DNA from: Paracoccaceae bacterium
Lineage (GTDB): Bacteria > Pseudomonadota > Alphaproteobacteria > Rhodobacterales > Rhodobacteraceae
Assembly (NCBI GenBank): GCA_965214695.1
Contig: CBDCCF010000001.1
Span: 18,838-82,837 of the forward strand
Length of the DNA stretch: 64,000 nt
Reading direction: 5' to 3'
The position numbers and the translations under genes are program-made. Below the pieces are notes generated by a model. That model worked only from the letters and a program-made list of their open reading frames with translations, was not told the DNA's origin and ran no database searches. This document shows, piece after piece, positions 3,195-52,583 of this stretch (its first letter is position 1; the number at the start of each line of letters is the position of its first letter).

Positions 3195-3335
3195 ACGTCT
3201 GCCCTATACAAGGATATCACCCGCCTTGCGCGTAGAATCCAGCCATCGCCGACTGGGTGGCGGAGTTGACGTCGGCGCCGACCACTGCCGCGCAGCGCAT
3301 ACGGGCTCCGTAAATGCTCATGCCCTGGCCCTTGG

Positions 3336-6760: not shown

Positions 6761-6844
6761 TAGCTAGGTAAAGCTATCCAGGGGACTGCGCTTTTCCTGG
6801 CGGGCGCAGCCCCTGGAGATGGATAAAGGCATGAGTCCTCATTG

Positions 6845-11405: not shown

Positions 11406-11675
11406 CTAGTAGCTGTCAACGAGGTCGGGCTGGAGCTGGAGCGCCTGGTCATAGTCGGTGATGGCGTACTGGTATTGACCGAGGTGGGCCTTAGCAACAC
11501 CCCGATGGACGTAGATGCTGGCTTTGTCAGGCTGGAGTTAGGGGGCCTGGCTATAGTCGTCGACGGCATCCTGGTATTGGCCAAGCTTAACCTTTGCGTG
11601 GCCCCGATAGAGGTAGGCGCGGGCATGGTCGGGCTGCAGGCGGAGACGGAGGGTCTGATTCAGGTCAGCGATGTG
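11406..11675 (-). pseudogene. TPR-repeat gene fragment with an in-frame TAA and no start codon
   Basis: The minus frame reads HIADLNQTLRLRLQPDHARAYLYRGHAKVKLGQYQDAVDDYSQAP*LQPDKASIYVHRGVAKAHLGQYQYAITDYDQALQLQPDLVDSY*. These are two 34-aa TPR units. Confidence 0.6.
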
Positions 11676-32014: not shown

Positions 32015-32035
32015 GGGGTAGTTGATCCACGAAGG

Positions 32036-32345
32036 GGCAGGAAGAACACCTTTTTTGTCCACGGAGGGTCACGGAGAACATCTTTTTTGTCCGCGGAGGG
32101 CGCGGAGGGACGCGGAGAACACCGAGGGCGTATCGGGTTTTCTGTGCGCAGCTGCGCAGCCGTTCGCGGATCAGTCGCTTTTTACTCCCGCAAATCGCCG
32201 TTCGGACAGACGGCCACGAGCCCTTGAGACCTGGGCGCGTAGCAGCATGGCGCCGGCACTGCAGATATGTTCATCTGTAAATATATTCATGCATGACTTA
32301 ATGCAACTTTTGGCATCCGCCTTCCAGCCACGCGTGTTGTCCTAC
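32036..32345 (+). repeat. MITE/REP-like element family, copy 3 (long form, right flank of the Cache gene)
   Basis: See 30353-30660. It starts 22 bp after the Cache gene stop. Confidence 0.85.
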
Positions 32346-37409: not shown

Positions 37410-37814
37410 GTGCCGATACCATTTGAACTTACAATTGATCGAGCGCCTGTATCTCAACAGGCTCGTAGAAGGCGGCGTGTAAGGAACTGGACTCAGGAGG
37501 TGCGAAGCGTCGCTGAAAGAGAATGGAAAGATGAAGCGCCCGTTTCCGAAGAACTCATGGTGACGATCACTTATTTCTACGACAGCACGCCCATGGATGT
37601 TGACAACATCCCCAAACCAATACTGGACGCATTGAAGGATCTGATCTTCTTTGATGACGCTCAGATAACGGATTTGCTTTGCCGAAAGAGGGTTCTGAGG
37701 CCCAGTTTTCAGACCCAGAATCTATCACCTGTCTTGCACCGGGCTCTCGGCCTGTCCAGACAGTTTGTTCATATCTTCGTGGAGGATGCGCCGGACCAGG
37801 AGGTGGTATCTTGA
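37410..37814 (+). CDS. RusA-like Holliday-junction resolvase family protein
   Basis: GTG start. Contains the RusA-type motif DVDNIPKPILDALKDLIFFDDAQI. Confidence 0.65.
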   Translation: MPIPFELTIDRAPVSQQARRRRRVRNWTQEVRSVAEREWKDEAPVSEELMVTITYFYDSTPMDVDNIPKPILDALKDLIFFDDAQITDLLCRKRVLRPSFQTQNLSPVLHRALGLSRQFVHIFVEDAPDQEVVS

Positions 37815-38470
37815 TTGAAGACATTGAAATTCTGGAAAAGATATTTATCGCTAAGACAGCGGCCAAGTACCGCAGCCGGGGCTATGAAGTGGAGGAAGAC
37901 TGCCCGTTGGAGTTCCTGCCTGGCTTTCGCTCCGATCTTGTTGCGCGCAAAGATGGCGATGTGAGGGTGATCGAAGTAAAGACCAGGACGTCTCTGGCGT
38001 TGACGAAGAAGTTGAATGAACTGGCCGAAATTTTGTATAGCAAGCCCGGTTGGAGCTATGACCTGCTTCTGGTGGGCGAACCGGAGAAACTGGAGTCGCC
38101 CGAGGGCGCGCAGCCGTTTGCGGAGGCGGAGATCCGGAAACGGCTTACCGAGGCGGAGGCCGTTCTTGAGAAGGGTTCGGGTGAGGCTGCCTATTTGCTG
38201 GTCTGGTCGGCTTGCGAGGCCGCTATTCGCAATTTGATCGGGACCGAAGGGATTGCCATCGCGCGCGTCACGACGGCGTCATACGTCCTCGATATGGCGG
38301 TCATGCACGGCATCATTTCGCGCGAGGACTACGACTATCTGACCGACATGATGAAGTATCGAAACGCCATTGCCCACGGCTTTGATGTCAACGGGTTCAG
38401 CGACGAGAAGGTGACGGAGTTGATCGAGGTCGTTGTGCGGCTGCTGGATTCGGAGCCTGAACTGGTGTAG
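37811..38470 (+). CDS. PD-(D/E)xK nuclease-like N-domain fused to a HEPN-like C-domain
   Basis: The putative TTG start overlaps the RusA-like stop (TTGA). N-domain: FRSDLVARKDGDVRVIEVKTR (D...ExK). C-domain: MKYRNAIAHGF (Rx4H). The start codon is uncertain. Confidence 0.55.
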   Translation: MIEDIEILEKIFIAKTAAKYRSRGYEVEEDCPLEFLPGFRSDLVARKDGDVRVIEVKTRTSLALTKKLNELAEILYSKPGWSYDLLLVGEPEKLESPEGAQPFAEAEIRKRLTEAEAVLEKGSGEAAYLLVWSACEAAIRNLIGTEGIAIARVTTASYVLDMAVMHGIISREDYDYLTDMMKYRNAIAHGFDVNGFSDEKVTELIEVVVRLLDSEPELV

Positions 38471-38960: not shown

Positions 38961-40823
38961 CTTTCAGTGCTCTCTCTGTAGAGCCGTATGGTGGTTCGTC
39001 GATGCGGGAACCGACGCGTCCCAATCAACGTCCTTTCAGTGCTCTCTCTGTAGAGCCGTATGGTGGTTCCTTTGATTTCACGGCCACGGACGTATCGGAG
39101 CCGGTCTTTCAGTGCTCTCTCTGTAGAGCCGTATGGTGGTTCCTGGAGAGGGAACGGCAGCAAAAGGCATTGATATTTCTTTCAGTGCTCTCTCTGTAGA
39201 GCCGTATGGTGGTTCGCCCCTGACCGCGTGCCAGTCGGCGTCCGGCACCTGCCTTTCAGTGCTCTCTCTGTAGAGCCGTATGGTGGTTCTTGTCGGCGAG
39301 GCGGGCCCGGAAGCCGTCATACCGCTCTTTCAGTGCTCTCTCTGTAGAGCCGTATGGTGGTTCTTTGCGGCGGATTGAAACTCAGATACGAGTTATGTCT
39401 TCTTTCAGTGCTCTCTCTGTAGAGCCGTATGGTGGTTCGGCGTATCGTGATTTTGCTGCGTCTGATTTGTCGGCCTTTCAGTGCTCTCTCTGTAGAGCCG
39501 TATGGTGGTTCAATACTCGCTCGATCCCCAGACGAGAAAGTTTGTCCTTTCAGTGCTCTCTCTGTAGAGCCGTATGGTGGTTCGCCTGCGCCCGCGACGT
39601 ACTGCTTAGAATCAGGCCTTTCAGTGCTCTCTCTGTAGAGCCGTATGGTGGTTCGATGGTTGGCTATGGCGGCGGCTGCCGTTTCGGGCTCTTTCAGTGC
39701 TCTCTCTGTAGAGCCGTATGGTGGTTCCGCCTTCCAACCTGGCTTAGAGTATCTGCCCATTATCCTTTCAGTGCTCTCTCTGTAGAGCCGTATGGTGGTT
39801 CTTTGCATAGAAAAAGCCCCCGGATATGTGATCCGACTTTCAGTGCTCTCTCTGTAGAGCCGTATGGTGGTTCTAGCAGTCGATGGCGGGCTGGTCGTCG
39901 GTGAAGATCTTTCAGTGCTCTCTCTGTAGAGCCGTATGGTGGTTCGCCTGCGCCCGCGACGTACTGCTTAGAATCAGGCCTTTCAGTGCTCTCTCTGTAG
40001 AGCCGTATGGTGGTTCGATGGTTGGCTATGGCGGCGGCTGCCGTTTCGGGCTCTTTCAGTGCTCTCTCTGTAGAGCCGTATGGTGGTTCCGCCTTCCAAC
40101 CTGGCTTAGAGTATCTGCCCATTATCCTTTCAGTGCTCTCTCTGTAGAGCCGTATGGTGGTTCTTTGCATAGAAAAGTGGCCGTAAGTCATCCAGATCTT
40201 TCAGTGCTCCCTCTGTAGAGCCGTATGGTGGTTCAGCCCAACCGTCTCCGATGTACCTTCTCATTTGAACCTTTCAGTGCTCCCTCTGTAGAGCCGTATG
40301 GTGGTTCCTTAGCTGTTCCAGCTTCGACTACCATAAGATAGGGACTTTCAGTGCTCCCTCTGTAGAGCCGTATGGTGGTTCGGCGCCCACAAAGTCAACT
40401 GGAAAGGCTCACTCGCACTTTCAGTGCTCCCTCTGTAGAGCCGTATGGTGGTTCTCGAGTAGGATGATTCCCTCGGGGCCGAAGCTGATGAGCTTTCAGT
40501 GCTCCCTCTGTAGAGCCGTATGGTGGTTCCTCCCGCACCTATAACTACACAATCACGGATTCGCACTTTCAGTGCTCCCTCTGTAGAGCCGTATGGTGGT
40601 TCGAATGGCACGGCCTACGCCGCGACCGAGGCGGTAAACTTTCAGTGCTCCCTCTGTAGAGCCGTATGGTGGTTCGATGAAATCGGCCAGGTTGAAGCGG
40701 TAGATCGTGTTGACTTTCAGTGCTCTCTCTGTAGAGCCGTATGGTGGTTCAGCTGCTCGGCATAGTCGATGTGCTCCTCTGCGGTGCTTTCAGTGCTCTC
40801 TCTGTAGAGCCGTATGGTGGTTC
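38961..40823 (-). CRISPR. CRISPR array: 26 repeats of 37 nt, 25 spacers of 34-38 nt
   Basis: Plus-strand repeat CTTTCAGTGCTCTCTCTGTAGAGCCGTATGGTGGTTC, first at 38961 and last at 40787. The minus-strand reading GAACCACCATACGGCTCTACAGAGAGAGCACTGAAAG has a 5-bp stem (GCUCU/AGAGC) and an 8-nt ACUGAAAG tail. This fits transcription from the cas4 side. Confidence 0.97.
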
Positions 40824-41111
40824 CGCCGGTGTTTTAGTCGTATTTTATGCCATAAATGACCTGCAGGCCTTTTTTGAGGCTTCTCAGGGCCGCCTGCGGC
40901 CTCTGTTTTGCTGGAATCAGGCAATCCGGCAGCTGTTGGAGCGACAGTTTTCGCAATATGGGAATTGCGGAAAAAGTCTACCGGTTTGCGAGGGCTGTTT
41001 TCTGTCATTTTTCTCTGGTCACGCAGCTGTTGCACGGTGAGGTCGCCGCGGAGACGACAGACGCAGCGCAAGATTTGAAACAGTTTGCGAAACAGCATGG
41101 CTATATCATGA
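40824..41111 (-). promoter_or_regulatory. putative CRISPR leader
   Basis: 288-bp noncoding gap between the cas4 stop and the first repeat. It is AT-enriched next to the array (TTTTAGTCGTATTTTATGCCATAAATGA). Confidence 0.55.
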
Positions 41112-41756
41112 CTATAGCATGTCATTGCAGAAGCGGCGGAACTCGCAGTCTACACAGCGGCTGCGCTGTCTGGCTGGAACCGGCGGCATCCGTTCGGCGA
41201 GGACCAAGGTGCGGATTTCGGCCAACTGGCGACGGACATCGTTGCGCAGGCGGGTGGTGACGGGTACGCGGACGGCTTTGCGCGCCGGGGTCAGATACAG
41301 GAAACCATGTTCCACCGGCAGCTGCCATACCTCTTCCAGCAATAGCGCATAGCAGGCTAGCTGCAGCTTGAAGTGGCGTCCAGGCTCCCGCCGGCTCAGC
41401 TTGTAGTCGACCGGGATCAGCCGGTCCTCGCCGTTGACCGTATGTCTGATCACCAGGTCTATCTGTCCGCTTACGCCCAGTTGTCCAGAGGCTAGCGAGA
41501 CATTGAAGTGACGCTCGCCCTCTGTCAGCCCATAGGCGCGTAGCGAACGCCTCCGCTCCAGCTCTTCAGCGCGGTCCTGGGCGCGGATGCCGGCATCCAT
41601 TTTGTAGGTGGTGGGCCGCACCTCCGGCAAACAGTAGTGGTAGTAAGGGATGCGGGGGCAGTAGGCGAACTGTTTGAGGTCGGTTACTTTGAGCAGCCAC
41701 GCGGTATGTTCCGACACTTGCGCGTCCGTGGGCGCAGGAATCTCCGGCATGGTCAA
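41112..41756 (-). CDS. cas4: Cas4 (RecB-like nuclease with a 4-Cys cluster)
   Basis: N-terminal FAYCPR, RecB motif IDLV...VDYKLS, and C-terminal CVDCEFRRFC. Confidence 0.9.
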   Translation of the reverse strand: MTMPEIPAPTDAQVSEHTAWLLKVTDLKQFAYCPRIPYYHYCLPEVRPTTYKMDAGIRAQDRAEELERRRSLRAYGLTEGERHFNVSLASGQLGVSGQIDLVIRHTVNGEDRLIPVDYKLSRREPGRHFKLQLACYALLLEEVWQLPVEHGFLYLTPARKAVRVPVTTRLRNDVRRQLAEIRTLVLAERMPPVPARQRSRCVDCEFRRFCNDML

Positions 41757-42013
41757 TCCTCCTCCATGCCCTGCTCGATGACCAGGCGTTTGCGCCAGTC
41801 CTCCTTGCAGAGGGGGAAGAGGTGCACGCGGGCGGCGGCTTTGCCGATTTTCTGTTCGATCTTCAGCATCAGCTCCTCCTGATGGTTGGCGCCCAGGCGG
41901 CCGAGGAAGGCGCTGTACTGCAGGCGGTCGAGGCCGTAGTCAAGACAGAAGTCGGCGACCTTGGTGCGCACGCGGTCGTCAGGAATGTCATAGAGCAAGA
42001 GGCAACGGATCAT
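41753..42013 (-). CDS. cas2: Cas2
   Basis: 86 aa with LLLYDIPDDRVRTKVADFCLDYGLDRLQYSAFLG. Overlaps the cas4 start by 4 nt. Confidence 0.9.
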   Translation of the reverse strand: MIRCLLLYDIPDDRVRTKVADFCLDYGLDRLQYSAFLGRLGANHQEELMLKIEQKIGKAAARVHLFPLCKEDWRKRLVIEQGMEED

Positions 42014-42035
42014 ATTGCTTTTTCCTAAAGGCCGA

Positions 42036-43088
42036 TTACCAGCTCGAGACGAATGGGCTGTACGCGTCCCGCTCGCCGCGCAGGTAGGCGGCCAGATGGC
42101 GGGCCTGCATCTGCACGATGTTGCGCAGGGGATGGCGCTTGTCCTCGTACCGTTCCTGGGCTTCGAGGCGGGTGAGGACTTTATCGGCCAGAGATCTGCG
42201 GGCCTTTTCGGTGAGGCGGCCGCGGCCGTCCAGTTCGACGGCGGCGCCGCGGTTGAAGAGGGCCAGGACCGTGCGGTCCACGATGGTCTGGCGAAACTCC
42301 TCTACCATGTCGTAGACCAGGGCCGACTTGCCGGGGCGATCGGTATGCAGGAAACCGGCGTAGGGGTCCAGCCCGGCAAGCACGAGGGCCCGTTCAACCT
42401 GGCTGTAGAGGATCCCGTAGCCGTAGTTGAGGGCGCTGTTAAGCGGGTCGCTGGCGCCCTGCGTGCGCCGGCCGGGCCAGTTGACATCGGCCAGGAGGAG
42501 TTTGCCGATGGCCTGCCAGTATTTCTGTGAACCGCGGCCTTCGATGGAGAGGATCTGTCCGCGCACGTCATCGACGGTATAGCTTCTGACAGGGTTTTGG
42601 ATAGATTCGGCGCGCAGCCGGTCCAGTTCGGCGACGTGGTCGAGCACGTCGCCGGCGAGCAGGCGCACTTTCTTGTACAGGTCCGGCTGTTTGGCCTTGC
42701 GGTATTTGGCCATGTATTTGAGCAGGTTGATCTGGTTGCTCAGCTTGCCTTCGGCCACGGCCAGGGCAATGTGCAGACCGCGGCTGTCCTGGCGGGCCTC
42801 GAGCTGGGCCCGGCGGGTTTGCACGGTTGCAGCCAGGCCGGCGCTGTAGAGGCTGCCGACCGGTTTGCCGCGGCGGCTGAGGAAGTGGATAGGCACACCT
42901 TCTTCGGCGCAGGCGGCCACGACGTCGCTGCTGAGGCTTACGCCGCGTCCGGTGATGAGGACGGTTTCGAGGTGCATCAGGGGCGCGTCGCCCCGTTTTT
43001 CGCCCTGGCAGGTGACGCGCAGGCGCCCGCTTTTTTTGGCGACAAAGCTGCCGAACTCGTCTACGATCAGGTGTTGAACGATGGGCAT
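42036..43088 (-). CDS. cas1: Cas1 integrase
   Basis: 350 aa from MPIVQHLIVDEFGSFV. Typical Cas1 blocks: NSALNYGYGILYS, GLDPYAGFLH, LVYDMVEEFR. Confidence 0.92.
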   Translation of the reverse strand: MPIVQHLIVDEFGSFVAKKSGRLRVTCQGEKRGDAPLMHLETVLITGRGVSLSSDVVAACAEEGVPIHFLSRRGKPVGSLYSAGLAATVQTRRAQLEARQDSRGLHIALAVAEGKLSNQINLLKYMAKYRKAKQPDLYKKVRLLAGDVLDHVAELDRLRAESIQNPVRSYTVDDVRGQILSIEGRGSQKYWQAIGKLLLADVNWPGRRTQGASDPLNSALNYGYGILYSQVERALVLAGLDPYAGFLHTDRPGKSALVYDMVEEFRQTIVDRTVLALFNRGAAVELDGRGRLTEKARRSLADKVLTRLEAQERYEDKRHPLRNIVQMQARHLAAYLRGERDAYSPFVSSW

Positions 43089-43100
43089 GGCATCTCCTGG

Positions 43101-43135
43101 GAGTGGATAGTGGGTAGTGAATAGTGGATAGTTGA
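43101..43135. repeat. five tandem heptamers TAGTGRR between cas6 and cas1
   Basis: GAGTGGA TAGTGGG TAGTGAA TAGTGGA TAGTTGA. Confidence 0.75.
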
Positions 43136-43143
43136 CAGAGCAG

Positions 43144-44190
43144 TTATGAACCACTGTAGTTGAATTCGATATGGCCGCAGCCCTTGACGGTATTTTTTCC
43201 TATTTGCACCTGGGCTGCCCAGAGCAGCCAGGGCAGCAGCGGCCGCCAGTCCGGGGCGGCGTAGGTGGCGCGGCCGATGAAGCCGCCCAGTCTTTGCGCT
43301 TGCCGCAGACGGCCGGAGTAGCCGCTGACGTCCCACCAGCGGGTCTCGTCGTTGACCAGCGCGACGGCGTCGGCATGGGGGAAGAGATCGCGTTTGAGCT
43401 GCAACGCTTGTCCGGTCGGGTCGTTGCCTTGCGGCCTGGTGGTCGGTCTGCCGCCGCCGAACTGTGCGCTCAGGTCCAGGATGCGCATGGCGGCGTTTTT
43501 GATGAGCTGGAAGGGTTCGGGCGTGCTGATTTTGCCCTGGCGTTTGATCAGGCGTGTGGGGGTGGTGAAGTTGATCGTCAGCCGGTTGTCGCGGGTTTCG
43601 AGGCGGTCTGCCAGTTGGGCAGCGGCGTCAGCAATGTGTACGTTGTCCACGGGCGCGGTGACGGCCTGCACCATGCGTTCGCCCGGTTTCATGAGGATGG
43701 CGGTAGCGTTTGTCAGCGGGTTGGTGGAAGTGATCGATTCGATGGTGAAGCGGCCGCGGCGGCCGCGTTCGTCCTTGCGGCCGATGCCGCCGGTCCCCAT
43801 GCCCTCTGCGCCGAGGGCCAGGTAGGGCAGGTAATTTAGATGGTCTCCGAAGAGGGTGACGGTAAAGGCGAACGGTTCGCCGGCTGCGTAGCGGGCCCGG
43901 TTGTCGAGGGGTGGGCGGATGGCATAGGGCCGGCGCAGGTCGCCGCCGGCATCCTCATCCTGCGGCATGGACAGCAGCTGGCAGACGGGACAGACTGACG
44001 CGTGCAGTATGCCGTCCTCGTGGTTGTGGGAAGGGTCGCGTCGTTCCGGGCAGAAGGTACGGCGCAGGACGCCGGCGAATGCGCCGCGTACAGCGCTGCC
44101 TTTGAATGGATGCCAGAGGACCGGCTCCTGGGCGCGGCAGTGGAAGGTGAGATGGTGGACGGTGAGGGGGATGTGTGGATGAGAGGTCAT
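43144..44190 (-). CDS. cas6: Cas6-like RAMP endoribonuclease (long form with a Cys-containing insertion)
   Basis: Start MTSHPHIPLTVHHLTFHC. Ferredoxin-like N-terminus with GSAVRGAFAGVL, a CPVCQ insertion, and a C-terminal G-rich loop IGKNTVKGCGHIEF. The position after cas5 also fits. Confidence 0.72.
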   Translation of the reverse strand: MTSHPHIPLTVHHLTFHCRAQEPVLWHPFKGSAVRGAFAGVLRRTFCPERRDPSHNHEDGILHASVCPVCQLLSMPQDEDAGGDLRRPYAIRPPLDNRARYAAGEPFAFTVTLFGDHLNYLPYLALGAEGMGTGGIGRKDERGRRGRFTIESITSTNPLTNATAILMKPGERMVQAVTAPVDNVHIADAAAQLADRLETRDNRLTINFTTPTRLIKRQGKISTPEPFQLIKNAAMRILDLSAQFGGGRPTTRPQGNDPTGQALQLKRDLFPHADAVALVNDETRWWDVSGYSGRLRQAQRLGGFIGRATYAAPDWRPLLPWLLWAAQVQIGKNTVKGCGHIEFNYSGS

Positions 44191-44215
44191 GCGGCGTTCT
44201 TTTCTTTCCGCCTGT

Positions 44216-44950
44216 TCACTGCCTGGTTTGGTCGAACCGCTCATATAGCGTGTAGCCTCTGCTGCTGCGCGCCATGCGGTAGGGGAGGATGACGGGGCGC
44301 AGGATGCGGTGTGTGCCGAGGCGCATAGTTTTACTTGAGTAGATATTGACTTCATCGAAACTGAGGTTTCTTCCGCAGTCGTCCATGACCTGCAACGTGC
44401 CGTCCAGTGGGAAGCTCTCGCTATGCTGTTCATCCTCACCTAAAAGAAGAAAATTCGGAGGCAGTTTCTCACTCTTTTCGAACTGTCCCGTAGCCTGGAC
44501 GAAACCTCCCCGCTTGCCCAGGTAGTGGATATTGGTCGTCCACAGCGCCCAGTCTTCATCTGCCTCATTGGAGGGCTCAAAGGCGATCCGTGTTTCTCCA
44601 TGCCACTGTACATACTCGCGGAAACCGATTGACCGACCCATGATTTGTAAGACACCAGTATCTGGATCGGGCAATACTTGGCCACGGCTTGGTTTCAGGA
44701 TTTTCGTGAACGTATTGTTCACTGCGATCTGATCCGGGCCGTGAATTGCGATCTTGCCATCACGGATGGCAGGCCATAGCCTCGTCCCCGCATCGATCCC
44801 TTCCAGCTGGATCACCGTGTTCAGGAGAGCCATTTTGAAGGAAAATGGCGTAGGAAGCAGAAGGGACTTGCCGCCGGTGGAGGTGGCGGCAGCCGCCTTC
44901 AGTGAGAACATTGTGACCGGCTCATAGGTAGTGATCCACCACATAGGCAC
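44216..44950 (-). CDS. cas5: Cas5-like RAMP subunit
   Basis: 244 aa placed between cas7 and cas6. N-terminal beta-strand plus LLLPTPFSFKMALLN, and a glycine-rich YLGKRGGFVQ. Confidence 0.68.
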   Translation of the reverse strand: MPMWWITTYEPVTMFSLKAAAATSTGGKSLLLPTPFSFKMALLNTVIQLEGIDAGTRLWPAIRDGKIAIHGPDQIAVNNTFTKILKPSRGQVLPDPDTGVLQIMGRSIGFREYVQWHGETRIAFEPSNEADEDWALWTTNIHYLGKRGGFVQATGQFEKSEKLPPNFLLLGEDEQHSESFPLDGTLQVMDDCGRNLSFDEVNIYSSKTMRLGTHRILRPVILPYRMARSSRGYTLYERFDQTRQ

Positions 44951-44952
44951 TC

Positions 44953-45918
44953 CTATCGAGCGAACTCATGTGGCTGGCATTCGGTCAAGAGTTCTTGCAT
45001 CACGTCAGCCAGACTTGAGAGAGACCCAAATTCCTCAACATGCACGCGTCCCTCGTGGATGCGGTTGAGAGAGGCGGAGATATCCTTGGTTTGGTCTATG
45101 AAATTCGGGTTTAGGGGGCTTACCATAGGGGCAGGGGCGGCGCCCGTACTGTAGGTAAGCGTGCCAGTCACGTCGACAATATGGGGATTTTGCGTATTGC
45201 GCATCGCCCCGCTTGGCTGCACAAACGAGTAGAGTAGGCTTTCCAGCAACGCCGCAAGCCGGGCCTGTCGCTCATCGCCGTCCAGCACAACTTTCTGGCT
45301 GATATCGTTGTAGCCGATGCGATGCGCTTCAATATTACAGACGATAGCGTACTGGCCGCTGTTGGCGGGGCGGTGAAAGATGGCCTGCCCCAGATTGGCA
45401 GAGCGTTCATCTTTCTCCGTAGGAATCTCGCGACGATCCGGATCATATTTGACGTGGAAGAATTGATCGGTGGTGACCAGTTCGGGGATGCCTACCGCCC
45501 AGCCAAACTCTACTACACTCTTGCGGGGTACAGAGAGGTTGCCGGCGGTAATCAGATTGCCTTCGATGTCGTCTAGTGTGCAACTAAGCAATCTGTCTAC
45601 GACTTGCACCGGCGTGGGTTTCTCCTTCTTTACCCATTCCTCGAATTCTGGATCTCCCGACATGCGGTTGGCGTCGAAGCGTTGACAGGCGGCGCACAGC
45701 GGCAATCCCCGCTCCTTACTGATACGGTAGAGATGTTCGGCCTGGATATGTTTGAGCATGTCGCCGCTAATGGCGTTGACACTCTCTAGCCGCCCATCGT
45801 GGGACACGATATTGACGATACGGGTCTGGGTCTGATTGCCCTCACCGCCCTCATTATTGAGAGAATGCAGATTCAAAGTGGCTTTGGCGGCGATCGACAG
45901 GTTAAAGATGGTTGTCAT
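44953..45918 (-). CDS. cas7: Cas7 backbone subunit (Csa2/Cst2/DevR/Csc2-like flavour)
   Basis: Motifs LNLHSLNNEGGEGN and AISGDMLKHIQAEH are characteristic of this Cas7 clade. Confidence 0.85.
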   Translation of the reverse strand: MTTIFNLSIAAKATLNLHSLNNEGGEGNQTQTRIVNIVSHDGRLESVNAISGDMLKHIQAEHLYRISKERGLPLCAACQRFDANRMSGDPEFEEWVKKEKPTPVQVVDRLLSCTLDDIEGNLITAGNLSVPRKSVVEFGWAVGIPELVTTDQFFHVKYDPDRREIPTEKDERSANLGQAIFHRPANSGQYAIVCNIEAHRIGYNDISQKVVLDGDERQARLAALLESLLYSFVQPSGAMRNTQNPHIVDVTGTLTYSTGAAPAPMVSPLNPNFIDQTKDISASLNRIHEGRVHVEEFGSLSSLADVMQELLTECQPHEFAR

Positions 45919-45989
45919 GAGGTGTACTCCGTTGACAGTGTTAGGAATTGCCGGTGCAACTTGGAAAGGGTCGAGTATACATCGTGGAC

Positions 45990-47759
45990 TTAAGGTTCCT
46001 GCGTTACAGATTCGTCTGTTTCGCCAGCCTGCTCTGCTCCTTCCTCCGTCTGCTCCCTTGGGTCGCGAGCATAGCCGAAGGCGACCAATAGGTTGCAGAC
46101 GGTTTTCGATCCGTGTTTATCGACCAACTTCACCACGCTCTCGATGTCCTGAGTGGTGATGAGTTTGCGCCGGGCTGCGCCCTTTGTACGTTCGTATACG
46201 CGCATGCTCTCGTCGTTGTAACTTTGCATAAACTCGGAGAGTATTTGGATGAAGTCATCCTCGTATTGGGCTTTACGCATCAAATCCTGTCCCAGACCGT
46301 AGCGGATATCAAATCGGCTTGTGCTTCGTCCTAAATAGAGAGGCACAAGCGTACTCATGCGGATGGCGTAGGCGATGTTACGGAAACCCTCATCCTCAAG
46401 TAAGGGTGCAAGTGCGGGGTTTGTCATTTTAAACAACCTCCTCAAGTATTTCTCGCTGAATGGTTTGACATAGAACCGGCTGCGGTCCAGAGCGCTCGTC
46501 AGGTAGCTGCTGTAACCCGCCAGAAACTCATAAAATGGAGCGAGGTAGTTGCCGGACAGAAAATCACGGTAAAGTTGGAGAAGGGCATAGCCTTCGCTGC
46601 GGTCCTCATCTATGTTGCGGATACGTTCTCTGTGTTCCTGCAGAATCGCCACATACTGGCGTGCGTCCTCAGACGTACGAATGCCCGGCATCCAGTCGGG
46701 CAGGCCCAGAAACGCCAGATTCATCATCGTGTAGGAGTTCGCGCTCAGGAGCTGGTAGGTGGCAACACCCATGCCGTTGACTACGTTGGAGATTCCACCA
46801 TCTCCAAAGATGTCCGGCTCGTCATCTTCGATGCTTTGTTCCAGCAGCGCCTCAGCATAGAGGAGAGAGGCCATGATATCCTGCTTCACCACACCCTCGT
46901 TCCAGAGACGGTCTCGGAAGCGCCGAAAAATCTGCTGATGTCGGGTTATCTCGATCTCATGGGGTGCAAGGATGTAGGTCTTACGCACGCCGGCGTTTAT
47001 CGTAGGCACAGCCGCTTCCCACAGGCCCACGGCCTTCAAAAACTCCAGCAGCCAGAATACATTCTCATTGCCCATTGTCAGCTTGTTGGCCTTGGCGCGG
47101 TTCTGACCTTTGCCCATGTGAGGGTTGAACAGTTGGGAGGCCGTAACCATGTGGCTAAAGCCACCCTTCCCAACTTCCTTCTTCCACCCTTCGGCTATCG
47201 CGTCCCAATCGGCCATGGGTGAAGAAAACAGTTCAAAAACCGTCCGCAGATTGAGGCCGGGAAACTGCGCGTTGGTACGCATCCACTGCTCGGACAGCTT
47301 GTTATGGATTGCCTGAGCCTGCATTCTGTAATCGCCTAAATAGGTGACGACTGTCCAATCAGGTGCTGGTTTGCTGTCTTCCAATGCCTGTTCGATCTCG
47401 TCGTTAGCCAGCTTTTCATTCCGCAGTTGCTTTCTAAGCGCCTGGTACCGGTTGAACTCTTCCCACGTTTCGTCCACGCTGCGGAAAGCGGGCACTGGGG
47501 CCAAATTATCCGGTATTTTGTTCTTTGCACTTACGACAAACCAAATCATTTGCCGTTCCCAACCGTCTGCCAGCCATTCTTCCCGCACCGGCGCGCCCGA
47601 ATCAATGAGAAAATAGCTCCCTCCATCTTTCAGGGTTACTTCCTCCTCTTGCAGATGGGGCTGCATATATTGGTGAAACAGAGTTGCCGCTCCGAACGCG
47701 AGCAGCGTATCGGTGAGCGTGCCAGTGGTTTTCGGCACATAGTAGAATTGCTGATACAT
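45990..47759 (-). CDS. Cas8-like large subunit (family unresolved)
   Basis: 589-aa ORF in the large-subunit position between cas3 and cas7. No HD or cyclase motif seen by eye. Confidence 0.62.
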   Translation of the reverse strand: MYQQFYYVPKTTGTLTDTLLAFGAATLFHQYMQPHLQEEEVTLKDGGSYFLIDSGAPVREEWLADGWERQMIWFVVSAKNKIPDNLAPVPAFRSVDETWEEFNRYQALRKQLRNEKLANDEIEQALEDSKPAPDWTVVTYLGDYRMQAQAIHNKLSEQWMRTNAQFPGLNLRTVFELFSSPMADWDAIAEGWKKEVGKGGFSHMVTASQLFNPHMGKGQNRAKANKLTMGNENVFWLLEFLKAVGLWEAAVPTINAGVRKTYILAPHEIEITRHQQIFRRFRDRLWNEGVVKQDIMASLLYAEALLEQSIEDDEPDIFGDGGISNVVNGMGVATYQLLSANSYTMMNLAFLGLPDWMPGIRTSEDARQYVAILQEHRERIRNIDEDRSEGYALLQLYRDFLSGNYLAPFYEFLAGYSSYLTSALDRSRFYVKPFSEKYLRRLFKMTNPALAPLLEDEGFRNIAYAIRMSTLVPLYLGRSTSRFDIRYGLGQDLMRKAQYEDDFIQILSEFMQSYNDESMRVYERTKGAARRKLITTQDIESVVKLVDKHGSKTVCNLLVAFGYARDPREQTEEGAEQAGETDESVTQEP

Positions 47760-48070
47760 CAGGCCTCCTCGACGGGATCAAAAAGATCAAGTTGTACATG
47801 CTGCGACTCGCCCATATACTGTCCAGATTGAAACTGAACACTATTTACACCGAAAAGCACCCGACATAATTCGTAAAGAGACTTCAAGTCACAGATTGGC
47901 AGTTCCCACATACCGATCTGTTTATGCCATTGCATGTGTGGGAATCGTTCTCTGAAGAACCGAAGATATCGAAAGAAGAGCACTTGGGATGAAACGTTGT
48001 CAAGGCGAAAATAGACATGGCGGGATGAAACAGCTAAAGTTATCTGTGGAATTTTGACTATTGTATTCAT
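47759..48070 (-). CDS. 103-aa hypothetical protein translationally coupled to the large-subunit gene
   Basis: GGAG RBS 6-10 nt upstream of the ATG at 48070. Its stop TGA overlaps the cas8-like ATG (ATGA at 47757-47761). The sequence is AT-richer than its neighbours. Confidence 0.55.
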   Translation of the reverse strand: MNTIVKIPQITLAVSSRHVYFRLDNVSSQVLFFRYLRFFRERFPHMQWHKQIGMWELPICDLKSLYELCRVLFGVNSVQFQSGQYMGESQHVQLDLFDPVEEA

Positions 48071-48274
48071 TCTCTCTCCATACGTCCTGCTTAAGTATAG
48101 TATACGCATATACTAGGGTATGTAAAGAGGCTATCACAGCGCGCCAGATATGCCAAAATGGGAAGAACTTCGATTTAAAACGCACACTTTTCTACGACTC
48201 CCAAGTGAGTACTGAAAGTAGAATATGCGAATACACCCCGACAACGATCCGAAAGAGTGGATACTTCGTCGGGA

Positions 48275-50731
48275 TCACTCCCTCTCCTGAGACAACCCGT
48301 CGCACAGACGCAGAATCCTCACCACATACAGATATAACAGCAGCGATCTGAAATGTCCCGGCTTGATCAGGGATCTGTGCAGCCTGCTGCCTCGGCCAGA
48401 ACTCTTCAACAGCGGCTGCTCTGGCGTCGGCAACTGCGCAGCTCGCAACCCCTGTACCAGAGCTTTACTTGCTTCCGGATGCAGGTCATATTCGGCGTAA
48501 CTCACTGTGCCGGTACTGTGATGGCGAGCGATGGCCGTCAGAACGGCTTGGACCAGAGATTTCTGTTGTCGCCCGATGTGATTTGCTACGATCTGCGCGA
48601 CGGCAACAGCGCTTTCTCCGGCGTGATTCGGGCGCGTTTCCTGTCTGTCAGTGCCTTTCCTGGCCTCTTGATGGGTCTTATTGCCGGGATCGGAGTCGGT
48701 ATGGACTGCCATATAGCTGAGATCGCAGATGGGTGCGCCAATCTTCTCCTGGTAGAGGCGCACCCAGCGTTGCCAGCGTCGATCCAGCTTGCCCAGATCA
48801 TGGCAGGCAATCGCGAGCCGGATCGCCTGGTCGAGCCCATCGACAGGCAGATTCCACAACTCAGTCAGTTTCCGCTGTATATAACTGTAATCATCCTTGA
48901 ACCGATGCTCGTATACGTTCACCACCCGCTCAATGTGCTCGCTGTAGCTTTCCAACTGGTAGCTGTACCCACCGAATCTGTTGCCCCGAAAATCCTCCCC
49001 TTGTTTCGAAACATAGCCGGTGTGTTCACCGGGTGCCTGAATGCGGAACCCCAGTTCTTCATCGTAGGCGCAAAAGGTGCTGTTAATGACAACAACCTTT
49101 GTGCTACTGATCATGCTGGAATCAAGAATGGGATGCCAAGCGTATCGTTCTTCTTGCGTGGCGTCTTCAATATCGGTCTGGCTGGACGACGGAAACTGCA
49201 TGGTCCAAGGTCGATCCTCAAATTCCCCGAGTTCAAGCCTATCAGCCATCTCCTCCAGATTGCGCCAGATAGCGTATACACTGCCCCGGAACAGACTGAA
49301 TCCTTGGGCGGAGAAGGGATTGCCGAGTTTCTCGGGGCAGTTTGCTGCCAGCACAGTGATGCTATCGATGCTGCGAATCAGGTTTCGCCGGTGGCTGGGG
49401 TCGTGCGCCTCCATTGCGTTGTAGATGTCTCGCCAGATAAGGCTCTGCTGTAGGTCCATAGCAGTTAGCAGGTCGCGGTCAGTGTCGGTGTGGACCTCAT
49501 CAATGATTGCCTGTTCGTCCTCGAAATCGAGCTTCTGGTCGGCTCTTCTGCAAAGCCTCTGCCAGGAGGTAGTGCAAAGAGCAGAAGGATAGGGCAGATA
49601 GTCGAGATTCTCCTCTCCCCGAGAATCCCGTGTCGGTACTTGATAAATGTGAACGTGCCCTACTTCGCCGGGGTACCGGGCGCAGCGGCCGGCCCGTTGG
49701 AAGATGGCATTGGCCGGCGCTATCTCGGTGTGCAGACGGTCGCAGGTGATGTCCAGCCCTACTTCCACAACCTGAGTCGCCACAAGAATCAGACTGTTAA
49801 TCGTTCGGTCCTGGGCCTCTTTTCCAAATTCGCGCCGGATCTCTTTCTCTTTCTGACTTCGATGTTCAGGGGTGAAACGGCTGTGGAGCAGGCGGATATC
49901 CGTACCCTTGCGCTTGGCATGATCACGAAGCTCCTCATAGAGCTTCTGCGCACGCCCTACCTGATTGCAGACGACGATGGAGCGGGTCACATCGCCCGTC
50001 CCATGGGCATCCAGGACAGCGTCGGCGCTAACGTTCTCTTCAGTAATATGGTAGTAGCGACGGCGCGCCTGCTTGCCCTCACCCGAGGCAATCTTCAGGT
50101 ACTCCTCTTTGTCAACCGTTACCACTTCAGCGCCGAGCCGTTGTGCCAATTCACCTAACATTGTGTTGGAGAATGTCGCTGTCATGAGTACGAAAGGGAT
50201 GAGCCCCCGCAATTCGGCTAGCAGCTGCAGTGTCGTTACCAGGGCGCCGGATGCATTGCCCCCATCACCGGTCGGAAAGAGGTGAAACTCGTCAAAAATG
50301 AGATAGGATGAAAAAAAGGCGCCCGCGTTCAGATTGGCCCTTCTGGCCGAGAGGGAATAGGGCACAGCCAGCGCGCTGCTGAGACTCTGATCGACAGTAG
50401 CAAAGATCAGATTGCCCAGCAGCTGGGGATCATCGGGGTGCTCGCCGGTCTGGATCTTGACGCGCAACCCCTGCTCAGGACGAAAGCGACGATCATAGCT
50501 TTCCGCAAGTCTGAGATACTCTTCATTGAATTGATTCGCCAGCACGCGCATTGGCACAGAGTAGATACATTTTCGCGGAAGCTGGTCCGGCTCGTCTGAA
50601 AAATACGATTCGATGTAAGGCGCAAGCGCGGCCCGTGTCTTGCCGGCTCCGGTTGGTGCCTGCAAGACGACTGATTTGCCTTGCTGAACGAACGATCTCA
50701 CACGTTGCTGGTAAGGGTACAGAGAAATCAT
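48275..50731 (-). CDS. cas3: Cas3 helicase with a C-terminal HD nuclease domain
   Basis: N-terminal SF2 motifs (QAPTGAGKT, LIFDEFH, QRAGRCAR). HD-type motifs only near the C-terminus (YSEHIE, IACHDLGKLD, HAGES, IARHHS). Confidence 0.9.
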   Translation of the reverse strand: MISLYPYQQRVRSFVQQGKSVVLQAPTGAGKTRAALAPYIESYFSDEPDQLPRKCIYSVPMRVLANQFNEEYLRLAESYDRRFRPEQGLRVKIQTGEHPDDPQLLGNLIFATVDQSLSSALAVPYSLSARRANLNAGAFFSSYLIFDEFHLFPTGDGGNASGALVTTLQLLAELRGLIPFVLMTATFSNTMLGELAQRLGAEVVTVDKEEYLKIASGEGKQARRRYYHITEENVSADAVLDAHGTGDVTRSIVVCNQVGRAQKLYEELRDHAKRKGTDIRLLHSRFTPEHRSQKEKEIRREFGKEAQDRTINSLILVATQVVEVGLDITCDRLHTEIAPANAIFQRAGRCARYPGEVGHVHIYQVPTRDSRGEENLDYLPYPSALCTTSWQRLCRRADQKLDFEDEQAIIDEVHTDTDRDLLTAMDLQQSLIWRDIYNAMEAHDPSHRRNLIRSIDSITVLAANCPEKLGNPFSAQGFSLFRGSVYAIWRNLEEMADRLELGEFEDRPWTMQFPSSSQTDIEDATQEERYAWHPILDSSMISSTKVVVINSTFCAYDEELGFRIQAPGEHTGYVSKQGEDFRGNRFGGYSYQLESYSEHIERVVNVYEHRFKDDYSYIQRKLTELWNLPVDGLDQAIRLAIACHDLGKLDRRWQRWVRLYQEKIGAPICDLSYMAVHTDSDPGNKTHQEARKGTDRQETRPNHAGESAVAVAQIVANHIGRQQKSLVQAVLTAIARHHSTGTVSYAEYDLHPEASKALVQGLRAAQLPTPEQPLLKSSGRGSRLHRSLIKPGHFRSLLLYLYVVRILRLCDGLSQERE

Positions 50732-51771
50732 GGTCCTCCGAAAAAGTCATCAATTGTGGTCTGGTGGGGTTCCGGTGATGTAGAAACATGCCACTCATAC
50801 TGCTCCGCCATCGCCTTCGCTTCCCCCATCAACGTCTCTCGCAACTCAACCGGCTCCAGCACCTCGCAGTCCGCGCCCCAACCGCGAATCCAGGGTAGCA
50901 TCTCCTTGGGTTCGGCGATTTCAGCCTGCCATAGGAGATAGCCGTCCGTTTGCAGCTCCGTTTCCTCTCCTCGCTGCCACGTGCTTTCCTGTACTCTCTG
51001 GGCGACTCGGGGATGAAAGCGCAGAACGACCTCCTGCGGCTCGGCCTCCGTGTACCAGATGCCCCAGGCGTGGCGTAGCAGTTCTGCCGGATCGAATGTG
51101 GCGGGTAACTCATATTCCTCACGCAGGATTTCAGCCGAGCGCAGTCTTTCGACCTTGAAGGTGCGGACCTTGCCGGGCGGTTCGCGCAAACCAAGCACGT
51201 GCGCGGTCTGGCCGACTGCATAGGGTTCGATGAAGTAGGGAGAGAATGTGTAGTCGAAAACGCGTCCATCTCCCATCTGGTGGGACACCCTTACCTTACG
51301 GCCGCTGGCCCAGGCTTTGGTCAGGGTTTCCAGCACTTCGAGGTAGACGGGGTCCCGATAGGAAGCGTCCTCGTCCATCACATCCGCAGACCGCAGCAGG
51401 TGACGGCTGACGTTTTCGTCCAGCCGCTGCAGCGCCATTCCCAGTTTGCGCAGCGCTGAGGCCGCATGGGGATTCTGTTTGTCCGTACGCGTAGCAAGCA
51501 GACGGGTAGCGAGATGGATGGCCATAACCTCGTGCAGGTTAAACGAGGCCTTTGTAAGTTCGGCGGCCCGATCGATTTTCAGTTTGTTGCCGTCCAAGTG
51601 GTCTTCATAGATGCTGGGCGGCAGGTCGTTCTGATCGAAATATTTGGTGATTACCGAGCGGTTAACGCTGATGCGGCGCGCGATTTCGGTGCGCGACAAT
51701 CCTTCAGGATGACTCCAAAGCAGTTTTTCGATCTGGTGGATACGGGCGGCCTTGCCTTCGGCTCGTTTCAT
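50728..51771 (-). CDS. HTH-WYL-domain transcriptional regulator
   Basis: N-terminal wHTH (LSRTEIARRISVNRSVITKYF). WYL-like core (VRVSHQMGDGRVFDYTFSPYFIEPYAVGQTAHVLGL). Its stop overlaps the cas3 ATG by 4 nt. Confidence 0.85.
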   Translation of the reverse strand: MKRAEGKAARIHQIEKLLWSHPEGLSRTEIARRISVNRSVITKYFDQNDLPPSIYEDHLDGNKLKIDRAAELTKASFNLHEVMAIHLATRLLATRTDKQNPHAASALRKLGMALQRLDENVSRHLLRSADVMDEDASYRDPVYLEVLETLTKAWASGRKVRVSHQMGDGRVFDYTFSPYFIEPYAVGQTAHVLGLREPPGKVRTFKVERLRSAEILREEYELPATFDPAELLRHAWGIWYTEAEPQEVVLRFHPRVAQRVQESTWQRGEETELQTDGYLLWQAEIAEPKEMLPWIRGWGADCEVLEPVELRETLMGEAKAMAEQYEWHVSTSPEPHQTTIDDFFGGP

Positions 51772-52089: not shown

Positions 52090-52583
52090 TTACGGACCGC
52101 TGCCGGCGCCGGTTGAGGACGACTTGGCGAAGGGGATTTTGGCGGCGATCGACATGGACAGCTACCGGGTGGAGAAGCAGGCGTGCGGGCGATCCAGCTG
52201 GCGGACGAGGATGCTGAGATCGGGCCGGCGGCGGACACAGGCCGGAAGCGGAGATGGAGTGGTTGTCCCACATTCTGAGGGAGTTCAACGACCGTTTCGG
52301 CAATATCGCGTGGCAGCACCAGGACAAGATCGGGAAGATCATCACCGAGGAGCTGCCGGCGATGGTGGCCGAGGACAGGGCGTATCAGAATGCGAAGGTC
52401 AACTCCGACAGGCAGAACGCGCGCATCGAGCATGACAGGGCGCTGGAGCGGGCGATGACGGGGCTGCTCGCGGACCATACGGAGCTGTTCAAACAGTTCA
52501 GCGACAACGGGTCGTTCCGGCGCTGGTTGCTGGAGAGTTCGTTCAGGGCTACGTATGATCGGGTTGCGGGGGCGGGTGGCTGA
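52090..52583 (+). pseudogene. hsdR: type I restriction enzyme R subunit (hsdR) C-terminal remnant with at least 2 frameshifts
   Basis: Three frames carry consecutive HsdR C-terminal blocks. These are PVEDDLAKGILAAIDMDSYRVEKQA, then VRAIQLADEDAEIGPAADTG, then LSHILREFNDRFGNIAW...YQNAKVNSDRQNARIEHDRALERAMTGLLADHTELFKQFSDNGSFRRWL. There is no N-terminal helicase part. Confidence 0.6.

Follow-up and report, generated by a model that had tools for sequence, protein, structure and literature searches.

Which type I subtype, if any, does the CRISPR-Cas locus on the minus strand of this 64,000-nucleotide stretch of Paracoccaceae bacterium DNA (the whole of which is referred to here as the window) belong to? 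The preliminary description of the DNA had read the locus as a mosaic or intermediate: a I-D-like system in which the HD nuclease domain had moved from Cas10d to Cas3 and the large subunit of the Cascade complex had been shortened. In our analysis the best explanation overall, to which we assign a probability of about 0.8, is instead a conserved bacterial, I-A-like type I lineage with a predicted internal Cas11 and two proposed layers of regulation, one of them autorepression by a degenerate mini-array. Coordinates throughout are window positions, with the cas genes on the minus strand, and the gene set (Table 1) comes from the listing of open reading frames (ORFs) together with three libraries of hidden Markov models (HMMs), PADLOC, NCBIfam, and Pfam.

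Subtype affinities and distribution of the locus

The PADLOC library includes cas profiles with subtype labels, among them Cas3d, Cas1d, Cas2d, and Cas4d for I-D. In it, the sole large-subunit match of the 589-amino-acid protein was Cas8a (CAS-I-A, effector_LS; 3.9e-64), and ten distant members of the same family also matched only Cas8a, at 1e-35 to 1e-59. Cas5 had a single match, Cas5a (CAS-I-A), over its full length (2e-57). For Cas7, the best Cas7 profile scored 5.7e-60; besides generic type I profiles there were matches to Cas7a (2e-28) and Cas7b (2.7e-06), the last being the only I-B effector profile matched; no I-D or I-G effector profile in PADLOC gave a match. The subtype-specific names returned for the large subunit, Cas7, and Cas5 were confined to Cas8a, Cas11a, Cas7a, Cas7b, and Cas5a. 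Neither the large subunit nor Cas5 matched anything in Pfam or NCBIfam. Cas7 passed the cut-off of the generic NCBIfam DevR model and scored 97.6 on the I-A-specific TIGR02583 against a cut-off of 212.6; the I-G and I-D models of Cas3 and the I-B, I-C, I-D, I-G, and MYXAN models of Cas1 also stayed below their cut-offs. No curated subtype-specific NCBIfam model reaches its cut-off, and the locus fits no textbook subtype definition, as the preliminary description had it.

The closest PDB sequences to Cas7 are I-A Csa2 (3ps0 and 9cp1) and Cas7a (7r21); Cas5 and the Cas8 profile found no meaningful match among PDB sequences. It had been proposed to compare a predicted structure of the 589-residue protein with Cas10d, among others. 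The AlphaFold (AF2) model of this protein (predicted local distance difference test [pLDDT], 85.7; predicted template modeling score [pTM], 0.86) found as its best Foldseek match in the PDB chain 7tr6_C of an I-A Cascade (E, 2.9e-4; probability, 1.0) and as its second Cas8c of the I-C structure 8dfa; no Cas10d structure was matched. We take 7tr6_C as a candidate Cas8a because the second match is a Cas8 and the Cas7a sequence is represented by another entry.

Judged by these profile and fold matches, the Cascade genes are related to those of I-A. Two textbook features, the split of Cas3 and a separate Csa5, stand in the way of full I-A membership, and membership in I-D, I-G, or I-B fails on their signature effector genes. 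For I-D, the HMM libraries gave no match to Cas10d, Csc1, or Csc2, and no HD profile matches the large subunit, in line with what had been seen by eye. The HMM typing that had been proposed as a check gave a divided outcome: one subtype, I-A, is indicated, whereas the reference I-A loci lack the Cas3 fusion, the embedded Cas11, and this gene order. The profile signals of Cas3 and of Cas1 and Cas2 are mixed, and the term “I-A-like” therefore covers the Cascade genes only.

With the archaeal I-A systems of Sulfolobus, Thermoproteus tenax, and Pyrococcus furiosus the locus has in common matches to the Cas8a and Cas5a profiles, a Cas7 closest to Csa2, a Cas3 helicase closest to Cas3′, an 8-nucleotide 5′ handle resembling (A/U)UUGAAAG, a Cas11a-like domain (here the C terminus of Cas8), and a predicted CC-type protospacer-adjacent motif (PAM) (PMC4005679). 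It differs from I-A in several respects: cas3′ and cas3″, which are separate in canonical I-A (PMC4005679), form one gene here, helicase before HD; cas8 has a conserved internal start instead of a separate csa5/cas11; cas3-cas8-cas7-cas5-cas6-cas1-cas2-cas4 stand together as one colinear block; bacteria, Chloroflexota for the most part, are the hosts; a WYL protein takes the place of Csa3 as regulator; and the I-A-specific NCBIfam Cas7 model remains under its cut-off. CRISPR-Cas 1 of Microcystis aeruginosa, also called I-A and compared here by description only, has a regulator followed by cas3-cas8a-cas7-cas5, with cas6 upstream; its published description is without cas4 and silent on the domain order of Cas3 (PMC4428289).

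The architecture is not peculiar to the window. The large-subunit family comprised 691 matches, all of them unnamed or “hypothetical” and many from Caldilineaceae. When one genome per species was scanned, the family turned up in 206 species genomes, with the closest relatives 89 to 91% identical, and an exhaustive profile search yielded 648 clusters at 50% identity. Most hosts are Chloroflexota (Caldilineales, Anaerolineae, Ardenticatenia, and Thermoflexia); others include Bacillota (Desulfothermobacter acidiphilus and Ammonifex thiophilus), Armatimonadota, Poribacteria, and more. For gene-order counts, 80 related loci were fetched. The search for the same order in related genomes, which had also been proposed, found it: the full series WYL-cas3-cas8-cas7-cas5-cas6-cas1-cas2-cas4 is present in 29 of the 80 loci, and the remainder are truncated versions of it. 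The WYL gene lies directly 5′ of cas3 in all 53 loci reaching that far, cas3 directly 5′ of cas8 in 65 of 66, cas7-cas5 after cas8 in 72 of 72, cas6 after cas5 in 52 of 58, and cas1-cas2-cas4 in that order in all 43 loci with the three genes. Three Bacillota members (L024, L027, and L032) have cas6 5′ of the WYL gene and not behind cas5, an order resembling the one published for the Microcystis loci. Downstream arrays in the same orientation occur in 31 related loci; (A/U)ACUGAAA(G/C) closes the repeats of these arrays, whose stems covary.

An architecture found in hundreds of genomes is therefore no recent mosaic. The nine-gene order recurs in Chloroflexota, Bacillota, Armatimonadota, and other phyla, and what had been described as a mosaic in one genome is a conserved lineage, common in Chloroflexota and largely undescribed. 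Loci of hot-spring Chloroflexota have been typed predominantly as I-A (PMC9755687), which fits the idea that current tools file the lineage under this subtype. It is indeed already captured, unnamed, by the existing I-A profiles. We found no description of the architecture in the literature covered, which included the text and supplements of the 2025 classification, and no use there of the names Cas8a3 to Cas8a8. The lineage falls into an annotation gap: Pfam and NCBIfam miss the large subunit and Cas5 of a lineage present in at least 206 species genomes, and named public records call the large subunit a “hypothetical protein.”

Cas3 organization and an embedded Cas11-like subunit

The C-terminal position of the HD domain, on which the I-D-like reading had turned, was upheld by the domain models: the helicase occupies residues 5 to 353 of Cas3 and Pfam Cas3_HD residues 598 to 739. 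In 57 full-length orthologues (778 to 871 amino acids, 57 loci) helicase and HD likewise stand in one ORF and are not split into cas3′ and cas3″, and both active sites are invariant, namely, the HD residues H599, H644-D645, H703, H737-H738, and D811 and the helicase motifs APTGAGKT, DEFH, MTAT, and QRAGRCAR. The closest solved protein to the helicase is the I-A Cas3′ of P. furiosus (7r2k/7tr8; 2e-23). Among the PADLOC profiles Cas3g is on top (1.6e-61) and is the only one colinear across helicase and HD; Cas3a1 covers the helicase only (4.3e-61). Cas3g is also the top NCBIfam Cas3 model, at 205.8 far under its cut-off of 400, and the I-D model (TIGR03158, cas3_cyano) reaches 42.1 against 69.1. 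The layout corresponds to a fusion of the I-A genes cas3′ and cas3″ in that order and is the same as in I-G (formerly I-U), where the HD domain of Cas3 is C terminal and the protein is integral to Cascade (PMC10482374). In other respects the locus differs from I-G: it has no Cas8g, Csb1, or Csb2, and its Cas5 and Cas6, like its Cas4 and Cas1, are unfused.

In I-A, which uses a CCN PAM, Cas3 is integral as well (PMC4005679). By analogy with I-A and I-G (PMC4005679, PMC10482374), Cas3 of this lineage is probably a standing part of Cascade rather than a later recruit. An I-A-type Cascade combined with the Cas3 layout of I-G offers a natural test of the published idea that the domain order of Cas3 and its place as a built-in Cascade subunit belong together (PMC10482374).

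One library entry deserves mention here. The first 319 of the 1,009 positions of PADLOC profile PDLC01766 (“Cas3c”) match the WYL regulator of the window (50728-51771) at 2.5e-144, and Cas3 of the window is absent from the strong matches of this profile. PDLC01766 was apparently derived from fusions of WYL and Cas3 or from gene calls that had been merged, so that it mislabels stand-alone WYL regulators as Cas3.

No separate csa5-like gene is present at the locus. The sequence GAGGAGG-N9-ATG leads into Met445 of the large subunit, a residue that at least 90% of relatives conserve. Across the 80 loci, GGAGG is kept at the nucleotide level 6 to 9 nucleotides before an in-frame ATG, GTG, or TTG, while the residues encoded there vary (LRRLIM, LEVLIM, LGRLIM, and ERLIM; i.e., RR, EV, GR, and ER). 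Such a GGAGG with an in-frame start leaving 130 to 165 amino acids occurs in 61 of 78 cas8 genes, against a background of 3.3% of all internal start-type codons. The I-A Cas11a profile matched 15 of 16 C-terminal fragments of Cas8 (best, 6e-06) and the III-B Cas11 profile matched three; the 145-amino-acid fragment of the window is modeled as a helical bundle (pLDDT, 71). These features predict that a Cas11-like subunit of about 145 amino acids is translated separately from an internal start of cas8.

Internal translation of Cas11 has been shown for I-B, I-C, and I-D, and none was found in Cas8g of I-G (10.1101/2020.04.18.045682). Like the genes concerned (McBride et al. 2020), cas8 of this lineage has a conserved in-frame start with a ribosome-binding site at the boundary of a Cas11-like helical domain, here about 145 codons from the end and predicted from sequence only. 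I-A is described with a separate cas11/csa5, and an internal start is unreported for Cas8a-type genes (10.1101/2020.04.18.045682). According to Makarova et al. 2011, a small subunit with a gene of its own is confined to “some” I-A systems, and long C termini of Cas8 accompany the lack of a small-subunit gene (PMC3150331). That a small subunit may be embedded is accordingly known in general; what is new is the conserved internal start in a Cas8a-type gene. The lineage bears on the origin both of Cas3 fusions and of embedded Cas11 genes.

A degenerate mini-array and a cargo gene between cas3 and cas8

The most informative part of the locus is the gap between cas3 and cas8. It had been described as AT-rich, and its GC content is 44% compared with 57% for the locus. 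Blasting the repeat units of all arrays against the loci with arrays masked revealed a repeat-like sequence at 48244-48265, 10 nucleotides past the cas3 stop and on the opposite strand. It belongs to a degenerate mini-array in which PsiR1 (48182-48218, plus strand) ends in ACTGAAAG (...ACGACUCCCAAGUGAGUACUGAAAG), with its hairpin in the register of the true repeats and with 8 of 8 bases kept of the handle, ACUGAAAG, which begins at 48211. The Psi-spacer starts at 48219 with TAGAATATGCGAATAC..., and PsiR2 (about 48233-48269) retains the hairpin, again in the true-repeat register, and has lost the handle. Antisense mini-arrays were also found in seven related loci (L002, L015, L052, L054, L060, L066, and L068).

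At 13 of 15 non-flipped positions, the Psi-spacer of the window agrees with the minus-strand site 48115-48098; the best of 200 shuffles reached 12. This site is preceded by CCC and lies between the −35 element (TTTACA) and the −10 element (TATACT), extending over the latter, of the best promoter-like site in the locus (TTTACA-16-TATACT; 10/12), which faces orf103-cas8. In seven of the eight loci, the first 18 nucleotides of the spacer match a site 90 to 130 nucleotides away at 13 to 15 of 15 non-flipped positions, the maximum for shuffled spacers being 12 to 13 (200 trials per locus; in L002 one shuffle came within one match). In most pairs, mismatches recur at spacer positions 6, 12, and 18, the bases that type I Cascade flips out. 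The target is flanked by CCC in five loci, by CCG in one, and by TCC in one; spacer position 16 and its target covary (C:C in the window and T:T in L002); and the targets of L066, L068, and L060 stand just downstream of TTGACA-17-TAnnnT promoters.

This signature predicts a Cascade-guided, CRISPR RNA (crRNA)-like repressor of the Cascade operon. In creR/creA genes, PsiR1 keeps the 5′ handle and PsiR2 the 3′ hairpin, and CreR exerts autorepression (10.1101/2023.03.10.532045); mini-arrays targeting cas8 promoters are known too (PMC10120712). The mini-array resembles these elements (Liu et al. 2023; Shmakov et al. 2023) in its degenerate repeats, short spacer, PsiR1 handle, and PsiR2 hairpin, in its partial, PAM-proximal match to the promoter of the Cascade operon beside a cognate-type PAM, and in its position between cas3 and cas8; it differs in being often paired with a small cargo gene translationally coupled to cas8. 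crRNA-like regulators have been reported for I-B, I-E, I-F1, I-D, and V-A (PMC10120712; 10.1101/2023.03.10.532045). The PAM predicted from the targets is of CC type, consistent with the CCN of I-A (PMC4005679). In this way the targets supply both a predicted PAM and a testable autoregulation circuit without experimental cost.

In L066 the mini-array and its TCC-flanked target (1790-1890) lie upstream of cas3 and not of cas8, and no WYL gene was detected in this locus, where the crRNA-like regulator may act in place of the WYL protein. The cas3-cas8 junction also takes insertions, among them an 8.2-kb insert in L056 (about 1753-10001) that includes a Cas10-like (GGDD) protein and an IS200-like Y1 transposase in L029 (4753-5589).

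orf103 has a plausible ribosome-binding site, GGAGAG, and its stop codon overlaps the ATG of cas8. Its product matched nothing in Pfam, NCBIfam, PADLOC, or PHROGs. The family to which it belongs has 13 clusters of 57 to 159 amino acids sharing the motif W-x-LP...L-x-x-L-Y-E-x-C, and the copies seen all lie between cas3 and cas8 (the window, L002, L004, L006, L007, L009, L054, and L060); the closest relative, L001, is without it. Together with the gap, orf103 has a GC content of 43 to 44%. It is cargo under the promoter predicted to be repressed and could be either a CreT-like toxin or an accessory factor. We also considered orf103 as a displaced csa5/cas11 and rejected this reading: it is absent from most loci, the closest relative included, and the similarity to Cas11a lies inside cas8.

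Working model, alternatives, and further features of the window

We propose that the array would be transcribed from the leader and that Cas6 would cut each repeat after the 5-bp hairpin, leaving ACUGAAAG as the 8-nucleotide 5′ handle. The resulting crRNA would form a complex with Cas5, a backbone of Cas7, and the Cas8a-like large subunit, and several copies of the Cas11-like protein would join the complex. Cascade would recognize a C-rich, CCN-like PAM and form an R-loop, and the single-polypeptide Cas3, presumably in constitutive association with it, would unwind and cut the displaced strand; Cas1, Cas2, and Cas4 would add spacers. Regulation would have two layers. One would be the WYL regulator, translationally coupled to cas3, for which sll7009 in I-D offers a parallel (PMC4012209). 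The other would be the crRNA-like RNA from the divergently oriented mini-array, the first 16 to 19 nucleotides of which would pair with the promoter of orf103-cas8-cas7-cas5-cas6 beside the CCC PAM, so that Cascade loaded with it would repress its own operon without cutting, in the fashion of CreR/CreA.

Several observations weigh against this model. The I-A label is the profile library's own annotation; Cas1 and Cas2 score best on I-B profiles (Cas1b and Cas2b), and Cas3 scores equally on Cas3g and Cas3a profiles. The match of the large subunit to 7tr6_C, the candidate Cas8a, has low TM-scores (0.30 and 0.47); the best fold match of the 145-residue fragment, a 121-residue chain of the III-A Csm complex, is weak (E, 0.93). 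At the mini-array, spacer position 4, in the seed, is mismatched in the window and in L002, and L054 has a mini-array without a convincing target. The PAM rests on regulatory targets, in which CCC fits CCN and NCC alike and one locus has TCC. Lastly, neither a scan of five spacers in IMG/VR nor a blast of the whole array against 50,697 phage records yielded a protospacer.

How do other explanations fare against the same evidence? The I-D-like mosaic with which we began would account for the order cas3-large subunit-cas7-cas5-cas6, for a 37-nucleotide repeat ending in GAAAG, and for the WYL regulator, all of which I-D also has. The PAM of I-D is GTN, however, and the one predicted here is CC-rich. 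The large subunit, Cas7, and Cas5 have no I-D match in PADLOC, the large subunit and Cas5 matching only I-A profiles; the NCBIfam models of I-D Cas3 and Cas1 stay under their cut-offs; neither a profile nor a structure of Cas10d matches the large subunit; and the architecture is conserved in hundreds of genomes. Internal Cas11 translation, first shown in I-D (10.1101/2020.04.18.045682), is a further point of likeness, yet with it we still consider this reading extremely improbable. A I-G member, or an intermediate between I-A and I-G in which the C-terminal-HD Cas3 reflects common descent and the Cascade genes an earlier, unfused state, draws on the Cas3g profile, which tops both libraries and alone is colinear over both domains, and on the structural resemblance of the I-G large subunit to Cas8a2 together with the integral Cas3 of I-A and I-G (PMC9638904, PMC10482374). 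Cas3g nevertheless falls well short of its NCBIfam cut-off and is equaled by Cas3a1 (4.3e-61), Csb1, Csb2, and Cas8g (Csx17) have no match, cas5/cas6 and cas4/cas1 are unfused (171 and 79 on the cas4g_cas1g model, whose cut-off is 560), and cas8 has a conserved internal start, of which Cas8g has none (10.1101/2020.04.18.045682). Had neighboring cas3′ and cas3″ genes fused independently, the same layout would result, and we regard membership in, or intermediacy with, I-G as improbable. We likewise find a divergent I-B system distinctly improbable. I-B, too, has cas8-cas7-cas5 in that order and a single fused cas3, and internal translation of Cas11 is another of its traits (10.1101/2020.04.18.045682; PMC11899642); Cas1 and Cas2 lean toward I-B profiles; and the border between I-A and I-B has moved before, Cst1 having formerly been Cas8a1 (PMC3150331). 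Against it, there is no match to Cas8b or Cas5b, and Cas7b at 2.7e-06 lies far behind the best Cas7 profile and Cas7a (5.7e-60 and 2e-28); on the NCBIfam I-B model Cas1 reaches 89.5, with the cut-off at 304; the HD domain is C terminal here and N terminal in I-B; and cas3 stands upstream and cas4 after cas2, whereas the I-B order is cas6-cas8b-cas7-cas5-cas3-cas4-cas1-cas2.

Two further alternatives concern the gap. It could house a CreTA-like addiction cassette, in which orf103 encodes a toxin silenced by Cascade with the crRNA-like RNA, so that losing or inhibiting Cascade kills or arrests the cell; this is compatible with autorepression. The crRNA-like gene and the small ORF are divergent, as in CreTA (10.1101/2023.03.10.532045; PMC9458426), there are reports of protein toxins that CRISPR effectors repress (10.1101/2024.01.05.574328), the GC content of orf103 and the gap looks foreign (43 to 44% versus 57%), and orf103 is patchily distributed. 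Its translational coupling to cas8, on the other hand, means that the repressed promoter drives Cascade too; nothing about orf103, which matches no known family, gives a sign of toxicity; and L015 has a mini-array and target without room for an ORF, as L068 has them without a member of the orf103 family, which speaks for autorepression as the core function. We hold the addiction cassette to be unlikely. That the locus is decaying or inactive and the repeats in the gap are debris of array recombination is a very remote prospect. An internal spacer duplication and two repeat variants in the array, as well as the protospacers that were not found, could be read this way, but none of the ten ORFs is broken, the catalytic motifs of Cas3 are present and do not vary within the family, and the variant repeat retains its hairpin through a G.U pair. 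The supposed debris, moreover, keeps the register of handle and hairpin and matches a promoter beside a CC PAM in seven of eight loci, its mismatches recur at every sixth base, and one position covaries.

Beyond the I-A-like lineage with mini-array autorepression that we favor, a more ambitious version may be put forward tentatively: the locus would represent a distinct, undescribed type I branch linking I-A and I-G, it would extend internal Cas11 and crRNA-like autorepression to Cas8a-type systems, and orf103 would be a new CRISPR-repressed cargo family, possibly a toxin guarding Cascade. We consider this possible and rather doubtful. I-A systems are used for nucleic acid detection and genome editing, and a version from bacteria that are not hyperthermophiles, with one Cas3 gene and no separate cas11, may move between hosts more simply.

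The order of genes on the minus strand given in the preliminary description (WYL regulator, cas3, gap, orf103, large subunit, cas7, cas5, cas6, cas1, cas2, cas4, leader, and array) holds for all ten genes, the leader, and the 26-repeat array, and so do its finer points: the WYL stop overlaps the cas3 ATG (as ATGA), cas5, cas6, cas4, and cas1 are separate genes, and cas4 follows cas2. The ten ORFs are intact, and the locus combines Cas3 with a Cascade of Cas5, Cas7, and large subunit, an adaptation module, and an array, as expected for type I. The NCBIfam models cas3_core (170.6; cut-off, 102.45) and cas3_HD (46.0; cut-off, 43.45) both pass. The locus is a complete and, to all appearances, working DNA-targeting type I CRISPR-Cas immune system, and such an assemblage lies far outside what chance would produce. 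The true start of Cas1 is probably Met23, near position 43088.

Table 1. Features of the CRISPR-Cas locus, in window coordinates
Feature	Position	Strand	Evidence or comment
WYL-domain transcription regulator (helix-turn-helix [HTH]-WYL-WCX)	50728-51771	-	Pfam WYL 7e-07, WCX 2e-18; PADLOC WYL 1e-31
cas3, superfamily 2 (SF2) helicase then HD nuclease, 818 amino acids	48275-50731	-	Pfam DEAD, Cas3-like_C_2, Cas3_HD
Degenerate mini-array, antisense to the cas genes	48182-48269	+	PsiR1, Psi-spacer, PsiR2
Sigma-70-like promoter TTTACA-16-TATACT, oriented toward orf103-cas8	48099-48126	-	10/12, predicted
Predicted mini-array target: CCC PAM (48118-48116) and protospacer-like site TAGTATATGCGTATACTA (48115-48098)	48098-48118	-	
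orf103, small cargo protein	47759-48070	-	Also a gene call of the ENA source assembly
Large subunit, Cas8a family, 589 amino acids, Cas11-like C-terminal domain	45990-47759	-	PADLOC Cas8a 3.9e-64
Internal Shine-Dalgarno GGAGG, 9 nucleotides before the ATG of Met445	46437-46441	-	Sequence read
Predicted internally translated Cas11-like small subunit, 145 amino acids (Cas8 residues 445-589)	45990-46427	-	
cas7, Csa2/DevR family, 321 amino acids	44953-45918	-	Pfam DevR 4e-65
cas5, 244 amino acids	44216-44950	-	PADLOC Cas5a 2e-57
cas6 endoribonuclease, 348 amino acids from an internal ATG	43144-44190	-	PADLOC Cas6 6e-63; Pfam CRISPR_Cas6 2e-13
cas1 integrase	42036-43154	-	NCBIfam cas1 260 bits; PADLOC best Cas1b 2e-97
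cas2	41753-42013	-	Pfam CRISPR_Cas2 2.5e-16; PADLOC best Cas2b 3e-31
cas4 nuclease, 3′ of cas2	41112-41756	-	NCBIfam cas4 120.7 bits
Leader, about 290 nucleotides	40824-41111	-	Separates the cas4 stop from the first repeat
CRISPR array, 26 repeats of 37 nucleotides (GAACCACCAUACGGCUCUACAGAGAGAGCACUGAAAG), 25 spacers of 34-38 nucleotides	38961-40823	-	

When folded, the transcribed repeat, GAACCACCAUACGGCUCUACAGAGAGAGCACUGAAAG, forms a 5-bp hairpin followed by the 8-nucleotide tail ACUGAAAG, and a hairpin with an 8-nucleotide tail is the usual product of Cas6. Seven copies of a variant repeat (A25G) at 40198-40696 preserve the hairpin through the G.U pair mentioned above. Inside the array, spacers 10 to 12 (39547-39814) and 15 to 17 (39909-40176) are exact duplicates, with the junction within spacers 9 and 14. 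A scan of the window with Rfam matched no family, the CRISPR-DR families included.

The flanking genes were checked for a defense island, and only one ORF, for an AHJR-like nuclease, stood out. This ORF of 263 amino acids (37679-38470, plus strand) lies beside the trailer end of the array and has an AHJR-like PD-(D/E)XK domain (8e-17) as well as a sub-threshold match to RiboL-PSP HEPN; it had no PADLOC match and may be a defense-related neighbor. Just upstream of the WYL gene, an ORF of 109 amino acids (52254-52583, plus strand) that matched nothing in Pfam or PADLOC resembles, on inspection by eye, a C-terminal piece of the R subunit of type I restriction systems. Outside the CRISPR locus, the window contains short tandem repeats at 6636-6722 (22 nucleotides, 4 copies), 11423-11636 (102 nucleotides, 2.1 copies), and 32026-32107 (32 nucleotides, 2.6 copies).

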